From Nanobdellota archaeon (GTDB lineage: Archaea; Nanobdellota; Nanobdellia; Pacearchaeales; GW2011-AR1): DNA of 58,423 nucleotides. Position 1 is the first letter of the stretch. Each line of letters begins with the position of its first letter. The notes under the pieces are model-generated. The model saw nothing but the letters and a program-made list of their open reading frames with translations, was not told the origin of the DNA and searched no databases. Made by a program: the position numbers and the translations under genes. Positions 3,501 to 17,312 of the stretch are shown here, one piece after another. The stretch covers positions 1 through 58,423 of the forward strand of contig JAHIVP010000023.1 of NCBI GenBank assembly GCA_018816335.1. Reading direction: 5' to 3'.

Positions 3501-4441
3501 TCAGAATTACAAAATTCAATTTTATTTTTCCCTATATATGCTTCTGAAACTAAACTTCCTAGAATAAATGCTAAATCTTCATCTAATTTTTTTGGAAGAA
3601 TTCTTTTTTTACTTCTATTATCTTTTAAATTTGGGTAAAATCTTTTAAGATCAATGTTGTTTTTTGGAAAGAAATTATCTGTTAATCTATCTAAAACAAC
3701 AATATCTCCTTCTTTAATTTTTTCTAATAACTTCCAGCAAAATACTGGTTTTCCATAAGAATTTTTTGTTAATATTAATAATGGATGATTATAACTTCCT
3801 GTAATGGAGTAGCCCTTGTTTGTAGTTAATTTTAATGTTTCATGTTTTCCAGAATCAAACCATTTAGAAGCATTATTTAATTTTTTGTCTTTACTGAGAA
3901 TTTTTAGGTTGATGTTTTCTTTATTTGAAATTTTATCAATTCTTTTTAAACCTTTTTCTGTTACAATTAAAGAATCTCCTGCTACACAATATCTCATTGC
4001 AGCTTGGGGGTCTCCGTCAACTGATCCGAAATTTCCTTGTCCGTGAATTAAAGGGTATCTTAAAGAGAAATTTTGAGCCATTCTAACTAATGCGTCGTAA
4101 ACAGCTGTGTCTCCGTGAGGGTGGTATTTACCTAAAACATCTCCAACAATTCTTGCACATTTTTTTGTTGGTTTTGAATTTTGTAATCCTATTAAATTCA
4201 TTGCGTGTAAGATTCTTCTATGAACTGGCTTAAGTCCGTCTTCAACAGAAGGAAGTGCTCTTGAAACTATAACTGACATAGCATAATCTATGTAAGCTTT
4301 TTCCATTTCTCCTCTAATTTCTGCTCTGATTACTCCTTCTCCATCTCCTGGTTCAATTAGATTTTTCTGGATTTCCTTTTTTTCTTCTTGTTCTATTTCT
4401 TTATCTAGATTTCCATTTTCTTCTGGTTGTTTTGGTGTCAT
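596..4441 (-). CDS. gyrA: DNA gyrase subunit A (intein-containing precursor)
   Basis: YHPHGD, GQGNFGS, AAMRY|TEA catalytic Tyr, GyrA-box QKRGGKG, C-terminal beta-pinwheel repeats. Confidence 0.98.
2678..3988 (-). mobile_element. Intein with LAGLIDADG homing endonuclease (437 aa) in GyrA
   Basis: Starts CVAGDS directly after the catalytic Tyr and ends SHN before T; block [13 protein letters not shown], block [11 protein letters not shown]; codon usage differs from the exteins. Confidence 0.95.
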
Positions 4442-4483
4442 TTTTCTTAGTATTATATTTTTCTTATTTATTATTTAATTTAT

Positions 4484-4798
4484 CTATACATCTATACTGT
4501 AAGGTGGACATTGGTATTTTGAACACTTCAATAATCTTGAGGTATATTGATTTTGTGTTTCATTCAAACAAAAGTCACCTACAACTTCAAATCCTTCTGG
4601 ACAAACAATATGGTTTCTTTCTATACATTCGCAGTTTTCGATTAACCAGTCTTTATCTGGTTTGCAAAACTCATCTTTGTCTATGTCATCTTGGTCTGAT
4701 ATTTGTTCAGATAGATTTCTGTTTTCATTGTAGAGATAGATAGCTGCTATTACTAGAACTACTATCAATCCAATGTAGATTAGTTTATTGTTTTTCAT
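4484..4798 (-). CDS. Small membrane-anchored Cys-rich protein
   Basis: MKNNKLIYIGLIVVLVIAA anchor and several Cys; start moved to ATG 4798 because the longer ORF overlaps a tRNA. Confidence 0.7.
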   Translation of the reverse strand: MKNNKLIYIGLIVVLVIAAIYLYNENRNLSEQISDQDDIDKDEFCKPDKDWLIENCECIERNHIVCPEGFEVVGDFCLNETQNQYTSRLLKCSKYQCPPYSIDV

Positions 4799-4820
4799 TT
4801 TAAATAGTAAATGTAAAGTG

Positions 4821-4918
4821 CGCCGGGTGCGGGATTTCCGTTGAAAAATTCGAACCCACAAAGTCGCTAGACTTCCAGTTTTTCAAACTGGTGTGTATAC
4901 CAATTCCACCAACCCGGC
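4821..4918 (-). tRNA. Long-variable-arm (Ser-like) tRNA with GAA anticodon and 14-nt intron at 59/60 (4835-4848)
   Basis: GCCGGGT/ACCCGGC acceptor, G discriminator, anticodon arm CCAGT-TTGAAAA-ACTGG, variable arm AAGTC-TAGC-GACTT, T-arm GTGGG..CCCGC with BHB TTCG/CGGA; TATA-like box about 25 bp upstream. Confidence 0.85.
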
Positions 4919-4964
4919 TTTGCACAACACCCAAAGATTTATATAATCTTAGAGCATTTTTGTA

Positions 4965-5011
4965 ACATAAGTTCGCTAGACTTTTGTGTATGCCAATTCC
5001 ATTGAACCTGC
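4965..5011 (-). pseudogene. Degenerate partial copy of the adjacent tRNA lacking the anticodon arm
   Basis: AAGTTCGCTAGACTT-T-TGTGTATGCCAATTCCA aligns to tRNA AAGTCGCTAGACTT-[17-nt anticodon arm]-TGTGTATACCAATTCCA. Confidence 0.65.
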
Positions 5012-5154
5012 ACTTTATCATTGTGGTTTTTTCTTTATTTATTAATATTTGTTTTGGTGTCATTTTGATAATTAGTGTATAAGTTTTGAAATTTTTGTAC
5101 CATACAAATAACCCCCCCACCCACCCTTATTTATGGTGCAAAAATTTAAATTAT

Positions 5155-5427
5155 TTATTCTAAACCTCCATAATCTAATTTTTCTCCAGGATCATACTCA
5201 TAGTGATCTAATGAACTAGATTTTTTTAACCATCCTTCTTCAACTAATAATCCTAAACAATATTCTAATAGGGTTACATCTTCTGAGGATAATTTTAGTT
5301 GTTCACTTAAAGTTATAAGGGTGCTATCAAATGCTTTTCCTTCTTTGAATAATTTTATTATTCTTTTCTTTAGTTCTTCTATTTCAATTTTTCGAGCATC
5401 ATAACTGTTTTTTATTTCTCCTTCCAT
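5155..5427 (-). CDS. Hypothetical protein, possible winged helix
   Basis: ORF packed in the gyrB run; LGLLVEEGWL resembles a wHTH wing. Confidence 0.6.
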   Translation of the reverse strand: MEGEIKNSYDARKIEIEELKKRIIKLFKEGKAFDSTLITLSEQLKLSSEDVTLLEYCLGLLVEEGWLKKSSSLDHYEYDPGEKLDYGGLE

Positions 5428-5428
5428 C

Positions 5429-5716
5429 TTAACTTGTTTCTTCTCCTTTATCATCTAAATATTTCATAAATTCTTCTTCTGATAATTCTTCTTTTTCTGT
5501 TTCCATTCCTTCCCATTTACATTTATTGCATTTCCAGAGTCCGTTTCCTCCAACTACCATTACAACATCATCACTTTTACATTCAGGGCATCTTCGAATA
5601 TTAAATGTTTTTCCTGTTTTTTTTTCTTTGGTTATACCTTTAGATTTGTTGTATTCTTCTAGGGAATCAAATCCTTGTATTATCCATTCTGGTGTTGCTA
5701 GTTTATTTTTTGGCAT
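5429..5716 (-). CDS. Zinc-ribbon protein
   Basis: CPEC...CNKC motif. Confidence 0.7.
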   Translation of the reverse strand: MPKNKLATPEWIIQGFDSLEEYNKSKGITKEKKTGKTFNIRRCPECKSDDVVMVVGGNGLWKCNKCKWEGMETEKEELSEEEFMKYLDDKGEETS

Positions 5717-5717
5717 T

Positions 5718-6068
5718 TTATGCTAATTTTTTTATATTATTTATTGAGATAATTATTGCTCCTTTGCAAGGTTCTTCTTTATTTTCTTCAATTGATTTAA
5801 CAAAGTCTAACCATTCTCCTTCTTCAAAATATTCTGCGGTTCCATCAATCCCATAACCTTTCCAATCTTTATTCCAAACAGCTAAACTAACTTTAGAGTT
5901 TCCTTTAATATTATTTATTGTTAAATTCATATGATTATTAGTAATAATTATTTTTTCGTTTTTAATCTTAACAAATGCTACTGCAATAACATGAGGATTT
6001 CCTTCTGAATTAACTGTTGCTAAAGCTACTGGATTTTCTTCAATTATCTTTTTAGTTTCTTCTTCCAT
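5718..6068 (-). CDS. Pyridoxamine 5'-phosphate oxidase-like FMN-binding protein
   Basis: VALATVNSEGNPH...TINNIKGNSKVSL pattern. Confidence 0.85.
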   Translation of the reverse strand: MEEETKKIIEENPVALATVNSEGNPHVIAVAFVKIKNEKIIITNNHMNLTINNIKGNSKVSLAVWNKDWKGYGIDGTAEYFEEGEWLDFVKSIEENKEEPCKGAIIISINNIKKLA

Positions 6069-6069
6069 C

Positions 6070-7956
6070 TTAAATATCAACAAGAGCTTCGTGAGCATGT
6101 TCTTGTATAAAGTGTTTTCTTAATTCAACATTATCTCCCATTAGGATTGAGAAGATTTGGTCTGCTTCAACAGCGTCTTCAATTGTGATTCTTTTTAATG
6201 TTCTTTTTTTAGGGTTCATTGTTGTGTCCCAAAGTTGTTCTGAGTCCATTTCTCCTAATCCTTTGAATCTTATTACCTCTACGTTTCCTAGTTTTGCTAT
6301 TAGTTTTTGTAGAGCATTGTCAGAATAAACATAATGGTCTTTTTTCTTTTTGACTTTATATAAAGGAGAGACAGCGACGTAGATATTTCCGTTTTCAATT
6401 AGTTGAGGCATGAATCTGAAAAAGAATGTTAGTAATAGTGTTTTAATGTGTTGTCCGTCTACATCTGCATCTGTCATGATTATTACTTTATTGTATCTTA
6501 ATTTTTCTATATTAAATTGTTCTCCAATTCCTGTTCCTATTGCTGTGATTAGGTTTGCAATTTCTTCTGATGAGAATACTTTTGCTGGTGGTGCTTTTTC
6601 AACGTTAAGAATTTTTCCTTTTAGAGGTAGTATTGCTTGTATTTCTTTGTCTCTTGCTTCTTTAGCTGTTCCACCTGCTGATTGACCTTCTACAATATAT
6701 ACTTCTGTTCTTTCTTTTTTCTTTGATGAACAGTCTGCTAATTTTCCTGGTAATCCTGAACCGCCGAAAGCTGATTTTCTTCTAACTAAATCTTTTGCTC
6801 TTTTAGCTGCTGCTCGAGCTTTAGCTGCTTCTGAAGCTTTTATTGCTATCTTTCTTGCAATTGCTGGATTTTCTTCAAAGAATTCTGATAAACATGATGA
6901 AACAATTGAATCTAAAATTCCTTTAATTTCAGAGTTTCCTAATTTTGTTTTTGTTTGTCCTTCGAATTGTGGTTCTGGAACTTTTACTGAGACTATTGCT
7001 GTTAGCCCTTCTCTGACATCGTCGCCTGTTAGATTTTCTGATTTGATTATGTTTTGTTTTTTTGAGTAGTCGTTTATTACTCTTGTTAAAGCTGTTTTGA
7101 AACCAATAATATGAGTTCCACCTTCAACTGTGTTAATTGTATTTACAAATCCAAATATGTTTTCTTGGTATGAGTTTGTATATTGAATTGCAACTTCAGC
7201 TATAATACTGTCTTGTGTTTTTTTGAAGTAGACTGGTTTGTGTATTGCTTCTTTACTTTTATTTATCCATTTAACAAATTCTTGAAGTCCTCCTTCATAA
7301 TGGAATTCTTCTTTTTTCCCTGATTTTTCATCTAATAATATTATTTTTAATCCTGCGTTTAAGAAAGCTATTTCTCTGAATCTTGTTGCGAGGACATTGA
7401 AGTCGTAGTCTGTTGTTGAGAAAATTGTGTCGTCTGCAGTGAAGTTTATTGTTGTTCCTGTTTCTGATTTTTGACAGTTTCCTACTGTTTTTATTTTGTA
7501 TTGTGTTTTTCCAATTTTGTATTCTTGTTGGTGTATTTTTCCGTTTCTTTTTACTTGTGCTATCATGTGTTTACTTAGAGCTGATACAACAGAAATTCCT
7601 ACTCCGTGGAGTCCTCCTGAGATTTGATATGCTTTTTTGTCGAATTTTCCACCTGCGTGTAGTTTTGTGATTACAACTTCTAGGGCTGGAATTTTATATT
7701 TTGGGTGTGGATCTACTGGGATACCTCTTCCATTGTCTTCGACTGTTACTGATTTATTTTTATGAAGTGTTACTTTGATTAATGTGCATGTTCCTGCTAA
7801 TGCTTCGTCTACTGAGTTGTCTACTACTTCGTATACAAGGTGATGTAAGCCATCTTTTCCTGTTGAACCTATATACATTGCAGGACGGTGTCTAACTCCT
7901 TCAAGTCCTTCTAGAACTTTTATTTCATCTGCTGAATATTTTTTTGTTTCTGGCAT
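6070..7956 (-). CDS. gyrB: DNA gyrase subunit B
   Basis: RPAMYIG, EVVDNSVDE, GGLHGVG, VEGQSA, PLKGKILN, DADVDG, RFKGLGEM; start set at MPETKK. Confidence 0.98.
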   Translation of the reverse strand: MPETKKYSADEIKVLEGLEGVRHRPAMYIGSTGKDGLHHLVYEVVDNSVDEALAGTCTLIKVTLHKNKSVTVEDNGRGIPVDPHPKYKIPALEVVITKLHAGGKFDKKAYQISGGLHGVGISVVSALSKHMIAQVKRNGKIHQQEYKIGKTQYKIKTVGNCQKSETGTTINFTADDTIFSTTDYDFNVLATRFREIAFLNAGLKIILLDEKSGKKEEFHYEGGLQEFVKWINKSKEAIHKPVYFKKTQDSIIAEVAIQYTNSYQENIFGFVNTINTVEGGTHIIGFKTALTRVINDYSKKQNIIKSENLTGDDVREGLTAIVSVKVPEPQFEGQTKTKLGNSEIKGILDSIVSSCLSEFFEENPAIARKIAIKASEAAKARAAAKRAKDLVRRKSAFGGSGLPGKLADCSSKKKERTEVYIVEGQSAGGTAKEARDKEIQAILPLKGKILNVEKAPPAKVFSSEEIANLITAIGTGIGEQFNIEKLRYNKVIIMTDADVDGQHIKTLLLTFFFRFMPQLIENGNIYVAVSPLYKVKKKKDHYVYSDNALQKLIAKLGNVEVIRFKGLGEMDSEQLWDTTMNPKKRTLKRITIEDAVEADQIFSILMGDNVELRKHFIQEHAHEALVDI

Positions 7957-15949: not shown

Positions 15950-16900
15950 ATGAAAATTTTGAAAATTGGGTTGCCTGCAGGAAGTTTGAAAGATGCTACT
16001 TTTGAGTTATTTAAAAAAGCTGGATTTAATATTACAATGAATGGGAGAAATTATAAACCTCAAATTGATGATGATGAAATAGATTGTACATTGATTAGGG
16101 CTCAGGAAATTCCAAAATATGTTGAGAATGGTGTTTTAGATGCTGGGTTAACAGGTGAGGATTGGATAAATGAGACAAGTTCTGATGTTAAGGAAATTGA
16201 GGAATTGTTATATGCTAAACAAAGGTTAAAGAAAGTTAAGTTGGTTATTGCTGTTGCTAATGATTCTAATATTAAGTCTGTTAAGGATTTGGAAGGAAAA
16301 AGAATAGCAACTGAGTATGTTAATATTACAAAAAGATATTTAGAGAAGAATAATGTAAAAGCTTTAGTTGAATTTTCTTGGGGTGCTACTGAAGTTAAGG
16401 TTCCTGAGTTGGCTGAAGCAATTGCTGAGTTGACTGAAACTGGTGCTTCATTAAAAGCTAATAATCTTAAGATTATAGATACAATTATGGAATCTTCAAC
16501 TAAATTTATTGCTAATAAAAATTCTATAAAAGACCCTTGGAAATATGATAAGATAAATAAGATTGCTTTGTTGTTGAAGGGAGCTTTGCTTGCTGAAGAA
16601 AAAGTTGGTTTGAAAATGAATATTGATGATCATCAGTTGAAAGATGTTTTGGAAATTTTGCCTGCATTAAAGCATCCTACAATTTCTCCATTAGGTAAAG
16701 ATGGTTGGTTAGCTCTTGATTCTATTGTTGATGAAGCTGTTGTTAGAGATATTATCCCGAAGTTGAAAGAGTTAGGTGCTGAGGGTATTGTTGAGTATCC
16801 TGTTAATATTGTAGGAAAGGAAAGTCGGCGAAGCCGATTTGGGAGAGCGATATTGCGAAGCAAAGAGCGAACTCTTTTCCTGATATTCAGAGAAGTTTGA
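15950..16900 (+). CDS. hisG: ATP phosphoribosyltransferase (long form); C-terminus replaced by an insertion
   Basis: LKIGLPAGSL, RAQEIP, SWGATE, ETGASL, ACT-like domain PTISPL..EYPVN; the likely native end NKIIP* lies at 17181-17198. Confidence 0.93.
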   Translation: MKILKIGLPAGSLKDATFELFKKAGFNITMNGRNYKPQIDDDEIDCTLIRAQEIPKYVENGVLDAGLTGEDWINETSSDVKEIEELLYAKQRLKKVKLVIAVANDSNIKSVKDLEGKRIATEYVNITKRYLEKNNVKALVEFSWGATEVKVPELAEAIAELTETGASLKANNLKIIDTIMESSTKFIANKNSIKDPWKYDKINKIALLLKGALLAEEKVGLKMNIDDHQLKDVLEILPALKHPTISPLGKDGWLALDSIVDEAVVRDIIPKLKELGAEGIVEYPVNIVGKESRRSRFGRAILRSKERTLFLIFREV

Positions 16901-17184
16901 AAAATGGCGATTATTCATTTTGTATATCCTTATCGTCGTCAATGACTTTTATTTCTGCATCATAACCTTTTATAAATTCTCCTTCATACACTTTTGCATT
17001 ATGTCCTTGTTTAGCCATTTGTCTTGCAAAAGTTATGGCATCCTTTTTATTCCACCGAATGTTATGATGCGTTCCTGCTACATCATAATCTAAAACGATG
17101 AAGTATTTTTTCACTTTCTGTTTAGTTTTTAACGATTTACGAGCCATTTTTCAAATTTGGTGAGCGAAGCGAACGCTCTGAATA
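16805..17184. mobile_element. 376-bp structured cassette inserted in the 3' end of hisG
   Basis: AATA direct repeat at both ends; IRs TATTCAGAG/CTCTGAATA and AAGTTTGAAAAATGGC/GCCATTTTTCAAATTT; three GCGAAGC hairpins; deleting it restores EYPVNKIIP*. Confidence 0.8.
16911..17147 (-). CDS. 78-aa hypothetical passenger protein of the cassette
   Basis: ATG lies inside the right IR; stop is 2 bp from the left IR. Confidence 0.7.
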   Translation of the reverse strand: MARKSLKTKQKVKKYFIVLDYDVAGTHHNIRWNKKDAITFARQMAKQGHNAKVYEGEFIKGYDAEIKVIDDDKDIQNE

Positions 17185-17225
17185 AGATTATTCCTTAGTT
17201 CTTTAGATTAATTTTTGATTTTAAA

Positions 17226-17312
17226 TCCACCACCCCAACTCGTTTGTTTCCATGGTCAACAAACTCGTTTTAGGATTTTGTTAATAAATAAGAATTTTTA
17301 TGATAGGTTTGA
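17226..17312 (-). repeat. Family A repeat, GA/GA subtype
   Basis: CCACCACCCC, GTTTGTT-TCCATGGTC-AACAAAC, TTAGGATTTTGTTAAT...GATAGG. Confidence 0.75.

Follow-up and report, generated by a model that had tools for sequence, protein, structure and literature searches.

A probable integron-like gene cassette in the last codons of hisG of a groundwater archaeon

Results

A 376-bp insert at the 3' end of hisG

The window, meaning the whole 58,423-nucleotide stretch of DNA that was analysed, belongs to the genome of a groundwater archaeon (G000; 0.9 Mb, 30.8% GC, 82% complete, fragmented assembly). Near its 16 kb position lie an interrupted hisG gene and an insert with one gene of its own, arranged as follows.

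15953..16807, plus strand: hisG residues 1-285, with Pfam PF01634 at residues 49-209 and PF08029 at 214-285; HisG and HisG_C are complete to EYPVN
16799..16808, plus strand: putative target site in hisG; CCTGTTA (16799-16805) is a look-alike of the conserved 3' arm in the R1 site family described below, and AATA (16805-16808) is common to the insert
16801..16892, plus strand: attC-like folded site, putatively for recombination, matched by the R1 model; as inserted, hisG supplies the 5' outer arm
16808..16900, plus strand: read-through tail of the interrupted hisG, 30 codons, from the list of open reading frames
16809..17184, no strand assigned: the insert, a probable cassette, 376 bp including one AATA copy; single copy, missing from the hisG of G011, from 81 of 82 motif-bearing homologues and from a relative's contig
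16813-16821 with 16873-16881, plus strand: inner stem of the site at 16801..16892
16822-16840, 16853-16863 and 16864-16875, plus strand: three GAA-type hairpins within the same site
16883-16892, plus strand: 3' outer arm of the same site, ATATTCAGAG
16893..16908, plus strand: left arm of a 16-nt inverted repeat (94% complementary), just beyond the stop codon of the passenger ORF
16911..17147, minus strand: passenger gene, a 78-aa beta-beta-alpha-beta-beta protein of unknown function, from homologues and an AF2 model
17143..17158, plus strand: right arm of the 16-nt inverted repeat, paired with 16893-16908 and containing the ATG of the ORF (17147-17145)
17159..17175, plus strand: side loop with the third GCGAAGC; variable, shorter in other copies
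17176..17184, plus strand: other outer arm of the insert, CTCTGAATA, complementary to 16884-16892 (9 nt, 100%)
17184..17198, plus strand: displaced original end of hisG, AAG ATT ATT CCT TAG (KIIP*), which fits the K-I/V-I/V-x-stop of 81 of 82 homologues

The hisG frame starts with the ATG at 15953, and the stop of the interrupted frame is at 16898-16900. The Pfam HisG_C match stops at residue 285, the N of EYPVN, which is profile position 72 of 73. HisG homologues align to about 90% of the 315-aa query and leave unmatched the 30-residue tail, which a preliminary description of this DNA called junk. The tetranucleotide AATA occurs twice, at 16805-16808 and 17181-17184, and the register of the insert is therefore ambiguous by 4 nt. 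Deletion of 376 bp in silico brings ...GTTAAT up to AAGATTATTCCTTAG (17184-17198) and gives EYPVNKIIP*, the end that had been proposed. To judge this end we took the 120 best HisG homologues, counted the 82 that carry the motif E[YF]P[LIVM]x and left out the 38 that do not. In 81 of the 82 the protein stops exactly four residues after EYPxN (K-I/V-I/V-x-stop), two of them ending ...NKIIP; the sole exception is the protein of the window, so that the long tail is found in no motif-bearing relative but the window's own. The HisG of a member of the same family (G011), 69% identical to that of the window, ends EYPLNKIIL* without interruption, and a relative's contig from another groundwater run goes on after position 16808 as ...NKVIY*, likewise uninterrupted. 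About 376 bp thus interrupt hisG four codons ahead of its stop, which confirms the original observation. As a result hisG forfeits its last 4 residues and acquires a 30-residue tail, and it retains both domains.

The right junction is spanned by a 230-nt contig from a second sample with zero differences; contigs of that sample overhang the left junction by only 6-7 nt and do not span it. The empty allele that the preliminary description called for exists as uninterrupted hisG in relatives, but not from the same strain: neither a same-strain empty site nor a circular junction is seen in the assembled contigs of the runs compared. The RNA run X5 covers hisG at 16300-16449 only, not the insert.

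The nested inverted repeats reported around a single antisense 78-aa ORF, with its ATG in the right 16-nt arm, were found again, 16884-16892 pairing with 17176-17184 (9 nt, 100%) and 16893-16908 with 17143-17158 (16 nt, 94%). The insert carries exactly this one gene and, as also stated before, encodes no recombinase. Its division into two separate domains has to be abandoned, since the 9-bp repeat is the outer stem of the same site as the GC-rich fold, split by an opening in one arm. GCGAAGC occurs in the insert at 16828, 16855 and 17164, and in the whole host genome 33 times, compared with 1-8 times for six other GCGNNGC words.

Parts of the insert recur elsewhere. The stretches that flank the ORF (16883-16922 and 17114/17125-17160) are found in three other runs next to other flanks, and the break falls exactly at 16882|16883. 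The repeat ends, whose failure to recur the preliminary description had named as a refutation, do therefore recur in assemblies of other groundwater. Behind 17160, the loose ends in runs X2 and X3 give a shorter stretch, followed by CTCTGAATA or CTCTCAATA. One X3 contig joins 16922 to 17137, with a 24-nt side that is too short to interpret.

A widespread family of folded sites

The site motif, first met by BLAST in three other genomes, has 24 exact matches in 23 of 401 genomes, and the reversed control has none. A covariance model (R1) made from 21 sites of 20 genomes, with the window copy left out, matches the window copy over its full length (1-97) with 44.3 bits and an E-value of 2.2e-9, a rough value, as are all those of this model, because calibration was shortened. 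The family is present in 50 of the 151 genomes of the same archaeal order. The GC-rich fold therefore belongs to an existing site family and not to a stand-alone new type of cassette, a possibility that had been raised. Two other BLAST matches were set aside: the one in G304 (L054) is a chance match in a coding region and the one in G178 (L040) is unconvincing.

Over the 21 sites a structure of 30 pairs has 89.6% paired cells, compared with 30-49% when the partners are slid. Fifteen pairs are altered on both sides, a value reached in 0 of 500 shuffles; covariation alone cannot separate a DNA fold from an RNA fold. The outer (R) and inner (L) boxes of the site are paired and its tip is variable, and its structure is kept more than its sequence. 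Outer and inner stems are offset by a 2-nt asymmetry (alignment A6, columns 10-11), and C-GAA-G closes hairpin 1 in all 21 members. The outer arms TAACA/TGTTA are invariant or nearly so (consensus TTTAACA ... TGTTA), with GTTTAAC in several copies. In the window copy the outer arms, CTCTGAATA and ATATTCAGAG, lack GTT and differ from this TAACA/TGTTA consensus. CCTGTTA is the 3'-arm heptamer in 15 of the 21 members and is identical to hisG 16799-16805. The heptamer occurs 137 times in the genome, which gives it a chance of about 0.003 of lying within 10 nt of a random point, for what is a post hoc observation.

Co-oriented arrays next to XerA-type genes

Fifteen of 23 family loci hold 2-3 sites, which lie 370-1378 bp apart and on the same strand within every locus (0 mixed-strand). 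The window holds one site; larger arrays have 8 sites in 10 kb (G067), 6 (G061) and, on contig C25 of the window's own genome, 4 sites in one orientation, set around a MazF-like/AbrB pair, a 675-aa enzyme and a 101-aa ORF. Neighbouring sites in arrays are separated by about one ORF, and in 14 of 21 intervals the largest between-site ORF runs antisense to the model strand, the orientation also seen in the window. In three of the five genomes checked, the array begins 678-764 bp from a XerA-type gene, with the same relative geometry. For both tyrosine recombinases of the host genome, and for those beside the arrays of G067, G289 and G061, the best match is NF040815 (XerA). Against TIGR02249 (IntI) these five match in two pieces, below the cut-off, and skip positions ~181-236, which we take to be where the IntI-specific domain lies; that domain reportedly goes back to Messier and Roy in 2001. 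A canonical integron integrase was found neither among the two recombinases of the genome nor among the three beside arrays. In the fragmented assembly of the host, no R1 site lies beside either XerA-type gene (L095, L096), and the end of the array contig C25 does not overlap the start of the XerA contig C15. Co-oriented arrays with XerA-type neighbours are an integron-like cassette system, and the likeness to an integron cassette drawn in the preliminary description turns out to be nearly literal.

The insert compared with a transposon

A MITE- or IS-like non-autonomous transposon with a passenger gene, moved by a transposase in trans and leaving AATA as a 4-bp target-site duplication, would account for the 4-bp direct repeat that flanks the unit. 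The genome does have other hairpin-rich repeat families, for example one whose ~450-bp unit has imperfect terminal inverted repeats and is flanked by long direct repeats at contig ends. The insert, however, has no terminal inverted repeats: its outer ends (16809 onwards; up to 17180/17184) are not inverted copies of each other. It is also single-copy, as neither BLAST of the complete insert nor fuzzy matching of its modules turned up a further copy in its own genome, and on the left it carries a full-length site whose family occurs in co-oriented arrays, not in dispersed copies. We consider a transposon unlikely. REPINs and the PATEs of IS200-IS605 elements have many dispersed copies, usually no passenger gene, and depend on a Y1 (HUH) transposase. 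Like them, the hisG unit is non-autonomous, bears hairpins, presumably acts as single-stranded DNA and has no terminal inverted repeats at its very ends. It differs in being single-copy with a passenger, and PF01797 (Y1/RAYT) has 0 matches in the 82%-complete genome, so that the REPIN likeness drawn earlier falls away.

Folding as DNA or RNA

The site rebuilt across the ends of the element forms, as single-stranded DNA, one closed hairpin of -19.2 kcal/mol on the plus strand (z -5.8) and -14.8 kcal/mol on the minus strand (z -4.5). Folded as RNA, neither the region nor its GC-rich part does better than shuffles on either strand (z -1.1 to -1.6). PMC13037366 describes d(GCGAAGC) as an extraordinarily stable DNA mini-hairpin. 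Folded single-stranded DNA is the most sensible reading of the hairpins of the insert, in agreement with the preliminary description, and conserved DNA mini-hairpin loops give a physical reason for single-strand folding in an AT-rich genome.

The fold might instead encode a small structured RNA or belong to the 3' UTR of the 78-aa gene; the arrays would then be RNA-gene clusters, and hisG would have received the insert by another route. The fold does lie directly downstream of the ORF and on its strand, and strong covariation suits RNA equally. Against this, as RNA the window fold does not rise above shuffles, and its invariant C-GAA-G loop is that of a DNA-type stable hairpin. Rfam returned no matching family for the window region at E up to 10 (only chance snoRNA-like rows) or for three related loci at E up to 0.1 (only unrelated 5S rRNA and tRNA). 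We rejected SRP RNA and RNase P RNA as identities of the family: RNase P RNA is encoded on contig C8, and the canonical SRP RNAs of G067, G097 and G042 are at other loci; in the host genome itself SRP RNA was not found. The sites of an array also keep to one strand regardless of the direction of the intervening genes, and a recombinase gene abuts the arrays. An RNA element is thus improbable, slightly more so than a transposon.

The passenger gene

For the 78-aa protein there are three homologues, 69-80% identical, and 6 matching cluster representatives out of 1.84 billion, and the four closest sequences have 40 invariant columns. The AF2 model has a mean pLDDT of 68. No family in Pfam, PHROGs, PADLOC or NCBIfam matches the protein, and the Foldseek comparison that had been advised gave no fold match at E <= 0.001 in PDB and BFVD. 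Its Atlas neighbours score at most 0.82 and are leads only; in Atlas and BFVD the closest are uncharacterised phage proteins, none of which reaches significance. A homologue of 74 aa is encoded on a 1661-bp metagenome contig (L019) amid tightly packed, overlapping small ORFs in virus-like style. A bacterial match (L020) is spurious, and scans for relatives of the passenger found no viral contig. Viral contigs also hold 0 exact matches to the left module that flanks the ORF. The passenger is a rare small protein that occurs on a virus-like contig too.

These neighbours, the virus-like contig and the presence of the site motif on 7 IMG/VR contigs would suit an origin from a virus or plasmid, either as a leftover of its integration or as a viral gene carried in along with flanking sequence by illegitimate recombination. 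We regard such an origin as very unlikely: the insert measures just 376 bp, its junctions are clean and its recombination site is complete, while the virus-like contig lacks the R1 site and the neighbourhood of the insert in the window shows no further viral gene. Least probable of all, and barely credible, is an RNA-level intron (archaeal bulge-helix-bulge or self-splicing) cut from the hisG mRNA to give the normal HisG end: excision restores the frame exactly and many tRNA genes of the host contain introns, but none of 5 registers has a bulge-helix-bulge (a 4-bp central helix is present only with <=2/4 flanking-helix pairs), Rfam returned no intron family, and the insert holds an antisense conserved protein gene and a fold of an array-forming site family.

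Discussion

The insert is probably one complete cassette of an integron-like system in a DPANN-type order, recombined as a circle into a look-alike site in hisG by a tyrosine recombinase acting in trans. The cassette would consist of the promoterless 78-aa gene on the minus strand followed by its recombination site of folded DNA, in which an outer and an inner stem carry a variable tip made of three mini-hairpins with GAA loops. Read-through from the rhomboid-like gene at 17979-17359 might express the 78-aa gene. In the circular form, 17176..17184 would adjoin 16809. With one strand folded at the site, the circle would recombine with the pseudo-core CCTGTTAAT, spelled by the hisG codons for Y-P-V-N. 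Crossover within AATA, the four bases common to both partners, would mean that the circle was opened in one outer arm, and because of this opening the outer arms of the site would now flank the ORF as the 9-bp inverted repeat. AATA (TATT on the other strand) is what the two junctions have in common, with no G|TT or GWT, and the right junction rules out the G|TT at 16802-16804. The enzyme would most likely be a XerA-type paralogue, as the neighbours of the arrays suggest.

The cassette reading agrees with integrons in several respects. Integron cassettes likewise combine a promoterless single gene with a folded, imperfectly palindromic site conserved in structure more than in sequence. Integron arrays, too, have co-oriented sites, about one ORF per interval, toxin-antitoxin cassettes and a tyrosine recombinase gene at one end. 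The outer boxes of attC sites follow the consensus RYYYAAC ... GTTRRRY, which the ends of the R1 family, TTTAACA ... TGTTA, resemble; the arms of the window copy are without GTT. Differences are also evident. The tip of the R1 site is built of C-GAA-G mini-hairpins. ORF orientation, reported as near-uniform in integrons, is less uniform in R1 arrays (14:7). Integron crossover takes place between G and TT of the core site, whereas the hisG junctions share AATA/TATT and show no G|TT crossover.

The pdif modules of Acinetobacter plasmids are a further parallel: inverted recombination sites bound their genes, and host Xer-type recombinases serve them with no dedicated integrase. Gene modules bounded by inverted sites and Xer-type movers are what we propose here as well. 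The pdif sites, however, are 28-bp double-stranded XerC/XerD sites without branched hairpins, and a dif-like 11-6-11 site was not recognised at the insert.

Archaeal integrons were described in 2022 from arrays alone (Ghaly et al., PMC9668308). That study reports attC sites in Nanoarchaeota (DPANN), with IntI absent from most archaeal cases, defines IntI by its additional domain and excludes singleton attC sites (Ghaly et al. 2022, PMC9668308); a lone cassette like that in hisG would therefore not be counted. Compared with those archaeal integrons, R1 arrays adjoin XerA-type recombinases that lack the IntI-specific domain, and the hisG cassette is tied to a widespread site family with arrays beside XerA-type genes rather than IntI. 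This raises the testable question of whether a Xer-type enzyme runs an integron-like system. Tentatively, and with some doubt, we suggest that the cassette system of this DPANN order may be run by a XerA-type recombinase without the IntI-specific domain on sites that act as single-stranded DNA with C-GAA-G mini-hairpins, and that the hisG insertion may be a natural off-platform capture, which would show the system to be active and able to hit housekeeping genes that by chance contain the conserved arm of its site. If so, cassette shuffling of the integron type would need no IntI, its catalyst here being a distinct and possibly older enzyme of XerA type.

To our knowledge, integron cassettes that enter bacterial genomes outside the integron are known only from laboratory assays and a few resistance-gene cases. 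A single cassette in a biosynthetic gene of a 0.9-Mb archaeon would be a rare snapshot of insertion outside the usual array, and the locus is a clean natural example in which each junction can be read, as can the ancestral end of the gene, once restored, and the look-alike target. The study bioRxiv 10.1101/2022.09.11.507474 describes off-platform insertion of cassettes at attG and secondary sites as experimental, in E. coli with IntI1-3, at a GWT consensus cut after G. The hisG insertion has in common with it a single cassette outside a platform, an ordinary gene as target, a short core-like sequence and no duplication beyond the shared bases. The hisG case differs in that it is natural and archaeal, has shared AATA/TATT with no G at the crossover, and involves a putative enzyme.

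Interruption of hisG

Features of hisG and its insert
From 15953, plus strand: hisG, with its ATG at 15953 by direct reading
16809-17184: 376-bp insert, register ambiguous by AATA
16822-16840: hairpin 1
16883-16892, plus strand: outer arm ATATTCAGAG, directly after the inner stem
17176-17184, plus strand: complementary outer arm CTCTGAATA(T), a perfect complement of ATATTCAGAG and the terminal part of the insert
16893-16908 with 17143-17158: 16-nt repeat on the ORF side of the outer stem; one arm covers the start codon, the other the first bases past the stop codon
17147-16911, minus strand: 78-aa ORF, the passenger

Both domains encoded by hisG are complete in Pfam (HisG, residues 49-209; HisG_C, residues 214-285, profile positions 1-72 of 73). 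Past N285 (AAT, 16805-16807) the ORF listing gives a 30-residue in-frame extension with its stop at 16898-16900, which matches nothing. AATA is present twice, at 16805-16808 and 17181-17184. Five registers are equivalent for the removal of 376 bp, and each joins ...CCT GTT AAT to AAG ATT ATT CCT TAG (17184-17198). The preliminary description held that excision gives a natural-looking HisG end, and uninterrupted relatives bear this out. HisG of G011, a genome of the same family and another genus, is 69% identical and terminates ...EYPLNKIIL*, with the next gene 19 bp on. The ends were compared for those 82 of the best 120 homologues from a large protein collection in which the motif E[YF]P[LIVM]x is present, and in 81 of these 82 the stop lies exactly four residues past it (K-I/V-I/V-x); two of the 81 terminate ...NKIIP. 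The sole exception is the window's own protein, and a long tail is found in no other motif-bearing homologue. A relative's contig from another groundwater run has 3 differences over 16772-16808, and its continuation reads ...NKVIY*. On these comparisons, the end restored by the removal is well supported as the ancestral one.

A folded site family

The first description is accurate on the hairpins, on the two inverted repeats (9 nt and 16 nt), on the three GCGAAGC words and on the placement of the ATG in the right repeat arm. The d(GCGAAGC) sequence forms an exceptionally stable DNA mini-hairpin (PMC13037366), and the word occurs 33 times in this 0.9-Mb genome of 30.8% GC, compared with 1-8 times for each of six other GCGNNGC words.

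A BLAST search with the insert in 401 genomes of the order yields mostly noise, with three genomes matching 21-29 nt of hairpin 1 and the following ATTTGGGA at 92-100% identity. Read directly, these three loci have the same frame as the window and different stems. A degenerate hairpin-1 pattern finds 24 places in 23 of the 401 genomes, and its reversed control finds none. We aligned 21 of the 24 places; one was omitted because it is truncated where its locus ends, and two because their 3' arms deviate. A second copy of this genome, from contig C12, is among the 21, and the window's copy is not. The aligned site has an outer 5-bp stem (TAACA/TGTTA) and an inner one of 11 bp, with a 2-nt asymmetry between them, plus hairpin 1 and a variable second hairpin; C-GAA-G closes hairpin 1 in all 21. 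Paired cells amount to 89.6% on the aligned structure versus 30-49% when the partners are slid by 1-3 columns. Changes on both sides are seen at 15 of 30 pairs, a value that none of 500 shuffles reaches. The inner stem reads AGGAAAGGA / TCTTTTCCT in the window, GATATTAAAAG / CTTTTAATATC in the C12 copy and GGAATTTAAC / GTTAAATTCC in genome G067, so the sequence is different each time with the pairing kept. R1, our own covariance model of this attC-like family, finds a full-length match at 16801-16900 (44.3 bits, E 2.2e-9), and the second-best in the 58-kb window has E 2.6; these E-values are rough because the calibration was shortened. The GC-rich fold of the insert is a member of this site family. 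No Rfam family matches the family, and SRP RNA and RNase P RNA are ruled out.

A site rebuilt across the ends of the insert

If the insert is closed to a circle, 17184 joined to 16809, ATATTCAGAG and CTCTGAATA(T) would form the outer stem of one complete site. In the rebuilt site an outer stem of ~10 bp is followed by an asymmetry (3 nt against 1 nt), by the inner stem and by the three hairpins of GAA type. As single-stranded DNA it folds into one closed hairpin, at -19.2 kcal/mol on the plus strand (z -5.8) and -14.8 kcal/mol on the minus strand (z -4.5), and on either strand none of 300 mononucleotide shuffles is as low. The 9-bp repeat around the ORF and the "first domain" had been taken as separate parts; since the joined ends form a complete outer stem and one hairpin, they are instead two views of one recombination site. 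This site would have been cut open in the arm, at 17184|16809, on entry of the circle into hisG.

Read on the minus strand, the unit consists of a 37-nt leader, the 78-aa gene and the site, which is the usual cassette order. The better-folding strand of the rebuilt site is opposite to the gene, and integron attC bottom strands are likewise described as folding on the strand opposite the gene (attG preprint; Ghaly et al.). By analogy, we infer that the attC strand rule carries over to the hisG insert. The 16-nt repeat could extend the stem in a single-stranded circle or pair the mRNA ends. Just beyond the old hisG stop, window 17220-17270 contains CCACCACCCCAAC followed by a hairpin with 12-nt arms (17237-17248 with 17258-17269). 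Elsewhere, at the C12 end, on C44 and in several loci, similar C-rich words or their complement accompany R1 sites and the contig-end repeat; they may be a common terminator or site-flanking signal.

Mobility and target

The ends of the unit recur with other contents in contigs of three other groundwater runs, as the preliminary description had proposed to look for. Seen through 30-letter loose ends of contigs, 16883-16922 and 17114/17125-17160 are found there with 0-4 differences, flanked by other sequence. The break on the left falls exactly at 16882|16883 and is preceded by three different sequences, and the ORF body differs beyond 16922 and before 17114/17125. A shorter stretch replaces the side loop with the third GCGAAGC, and other sequences starting TT follow CTCTGAATA or CTCTCAATA. 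The stretch 16837-16877 also recurs, with a different hairpin 1 in which the stem is changed and the GAA loop kept. In a second sample, a 230-nt contig spans the right junction with zero differences; the contigs of that sample do not span the left one.

The hisG target does not look random. CCTGTTA (16799-16805, in the codons for Y-P-V-N) is the 3'-arm heptamer in 15 of 21 family members; with its 137 occurrences in the genome, a random point would have one within 10 nt with a probability of ~0.003, for a coincidence noticed after the fact. The G011 sequence at the target place is CCATTAAAC. The hisG junctions do not match the bacterial rule at the cassette crossover, given as G|TT or GWT (bioRxiv 10.1101/2022.09.11.507474). 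Transposition with a 4-bp duplication would fit the junctions taken alone, but the two outer ends of the unit do not form an inverted repeat, this genome has just one copy of the 376 bp and no Y1 transposase was found there, which makes it an improbable origin. The AATA common to target and cassette may rather be a trace of strand exchange in short identity than a transposase duplication.

Arrays and recombinases

The site family forms integron-like arrays. Further R1 copies in this genome lie on contigs C12, C36, C5 and C24. Contig C25, 7 kb long, has four, all on one strand.

Genes between the R1 sites of C25
3012-3598, minus strand: MazF-like ORF (weak match, below cut-off) and AbrB-family partner (above cut-off)
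4071-6098: 675-aa PEP-utilising-type enzyme
C25: 101-aa ORF

The stretch C25:2778-7039 is a cassette array without a recombinase on that contig. The 23 loci around the pattern matches hold 41 R1 sites at E 0.01 or better. Two or three sites occur in 15 of the 23, spaced 370-1378 bp apart and never on mixed strands; relative to the model strand, the largest ORF between sites runs antisense in 14 of 21 intervals and sense in 7. Across 151 genomes sampled from the order, 50 have R1 sites at E 1e-5 or better (26 of the 68 more complete ones), with 1-10 sites per genome. Seven IMG/VR contigs of 12-56 kb (L104-L110) carry the hairpin-1 motif and full R1 sites, up to four co-oriented in 2.3 kb on L107; they are either viruses with R1 arrays or archaeal contigs filed as viral.

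We surveyed tyrosine recombinases in five genomes (G067, G289, G061, G097 and G135). Three have a recombinase and R1 sites on one contig, and in all three the array adjoins the gene with equal geometry.

Arrays next to recombinase genes
G067: eight sites in 10 kb, recombinase gene 678 bp beyond
G289: mirror image, recombinase at 693 bp
G061: mirror image, recombinase at 764 bp

In G097 and G135 the pattern-matched site and all recombinase matches are on separate contigs. The best model for the three array-adjacent recombinases and for both of the present genome (C23, C15) is NF040815 (archaeal XerA), with four of the five exceeding its cut-off; the integron-integrase model matches all five in two pieces, skipping ~181-236, below cut-off. 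This 0.9-Mb genome has two XerA-type paralogues (C23:32250-33041 and C15:287-1075), and each of the other five genomes checked also has at least two. Chromosome dimer resolution may be the task of one paralogue and the cassette arrays that of the other.

That the family is a structured RNA is compatible with the covariation, but the arrays are co-oriented, a recombinase gene is their neighbour, the loop is of DNA type and the RNA energies are poor, leaving this reading improbable. The complete site and the clean ends are difficult to reconcile with a viral remnant in hisG, and there is no support for a bulge-helix-bulge intron.

Ghaly et al. (2022, PMC9668308) describe archaeal integrons and attC clusters that lack IntI, also from Nanoarchaeota (DPANN); they define IntI by an additional domain and exclude singleton sites. 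Off-platform cassette insertion has been published for bacteria in the laboratory (bioRxiv 10.1101/2022.09.11.507474). Three findings are new here: a naturally occurring off-platform insertion, readable in full, in a housekeeping gene of an archaeon; a site family with C-GAA-G mini-hairpins as its building blocks, which may overlap with the attC sites counted in PMC9668308; and the repeated adjacency of arrays to XerA-type rather than IntI-type genes, for which we claim no absence from the literature.

The passenger gene

Judged by its conservation, the 78-aa ORF is a real gene. Three homologues are 69-80% identical, with 40 invariant columns among the four sequences, and a search of 1.84 billion proteins gives six cluster representatives at E 0.001 or better. 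The protein matches no family in Pfam, PHROGs, NCBIfam or PADLOC. AlphaFold2 predicts a beta-beta-alpha-beta-beta fold from a 9-row alignment (mean pLDDT 68), for which Foldseek finds nothing in PDB or BFVD at E 0.001 or better. In the Atlas its neighbours are viral clusters without names, and their scores are also attained by shuffled proteins. One homologue lies among overlapping small ORFs on a 1661-bp metagenome contig (L019) without an R1 site, so the passenger gene also circulates outside cassettes. On sequence reading the 37-nt leader shows no promoter-like box, and expression would come from read-through of the rhomboid-like gene on the same strand (17979-17359).

On L019, three successive small ORFs (70-700) start with a common stretch of ~20 nt (ATGAGCCAACCAG..., MSQP...) and overlap the stop before them; through such a repeated start module, genes of a virus-like genome may be shuffled. 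Two small overlapping ORFs at C5:7357-7892 (L093:1357-1892) adjoin the R1 site at C5:7040-7141. The 83-aa ORF of this pair ends ...KSQAIAFARRYMRSH, resembling the ...KKDAITFARQMAKQGH helix of the passenger, and may be a distant relative in another cassette.

Other repeats in the genome

The 11-mer TTGCGAAGCAA occurs 15 times in the genome. A unit of ~100 nt containing it lies at C2:22915, C27:11298, C36:29555 and C45:15602 and 15776, the last two forming a tandem pair 174 bp apart, and adjoins tRNA-like T-arm/acceptor sequence. The assembly is broken at the C16 end/C43 start and the C20 end/C44 end by a repeat of ~450 bp that carries two GCGAAGC hairpins and has imperfect inverted repeats at its termini; it is also present at C33:9500-9790, on C41 and on C42. 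The flanks of the paired contig ends have a common direct repeat of 12-17 nt, which suggests an element, MITE-like or integrating, that duplicates a long target.
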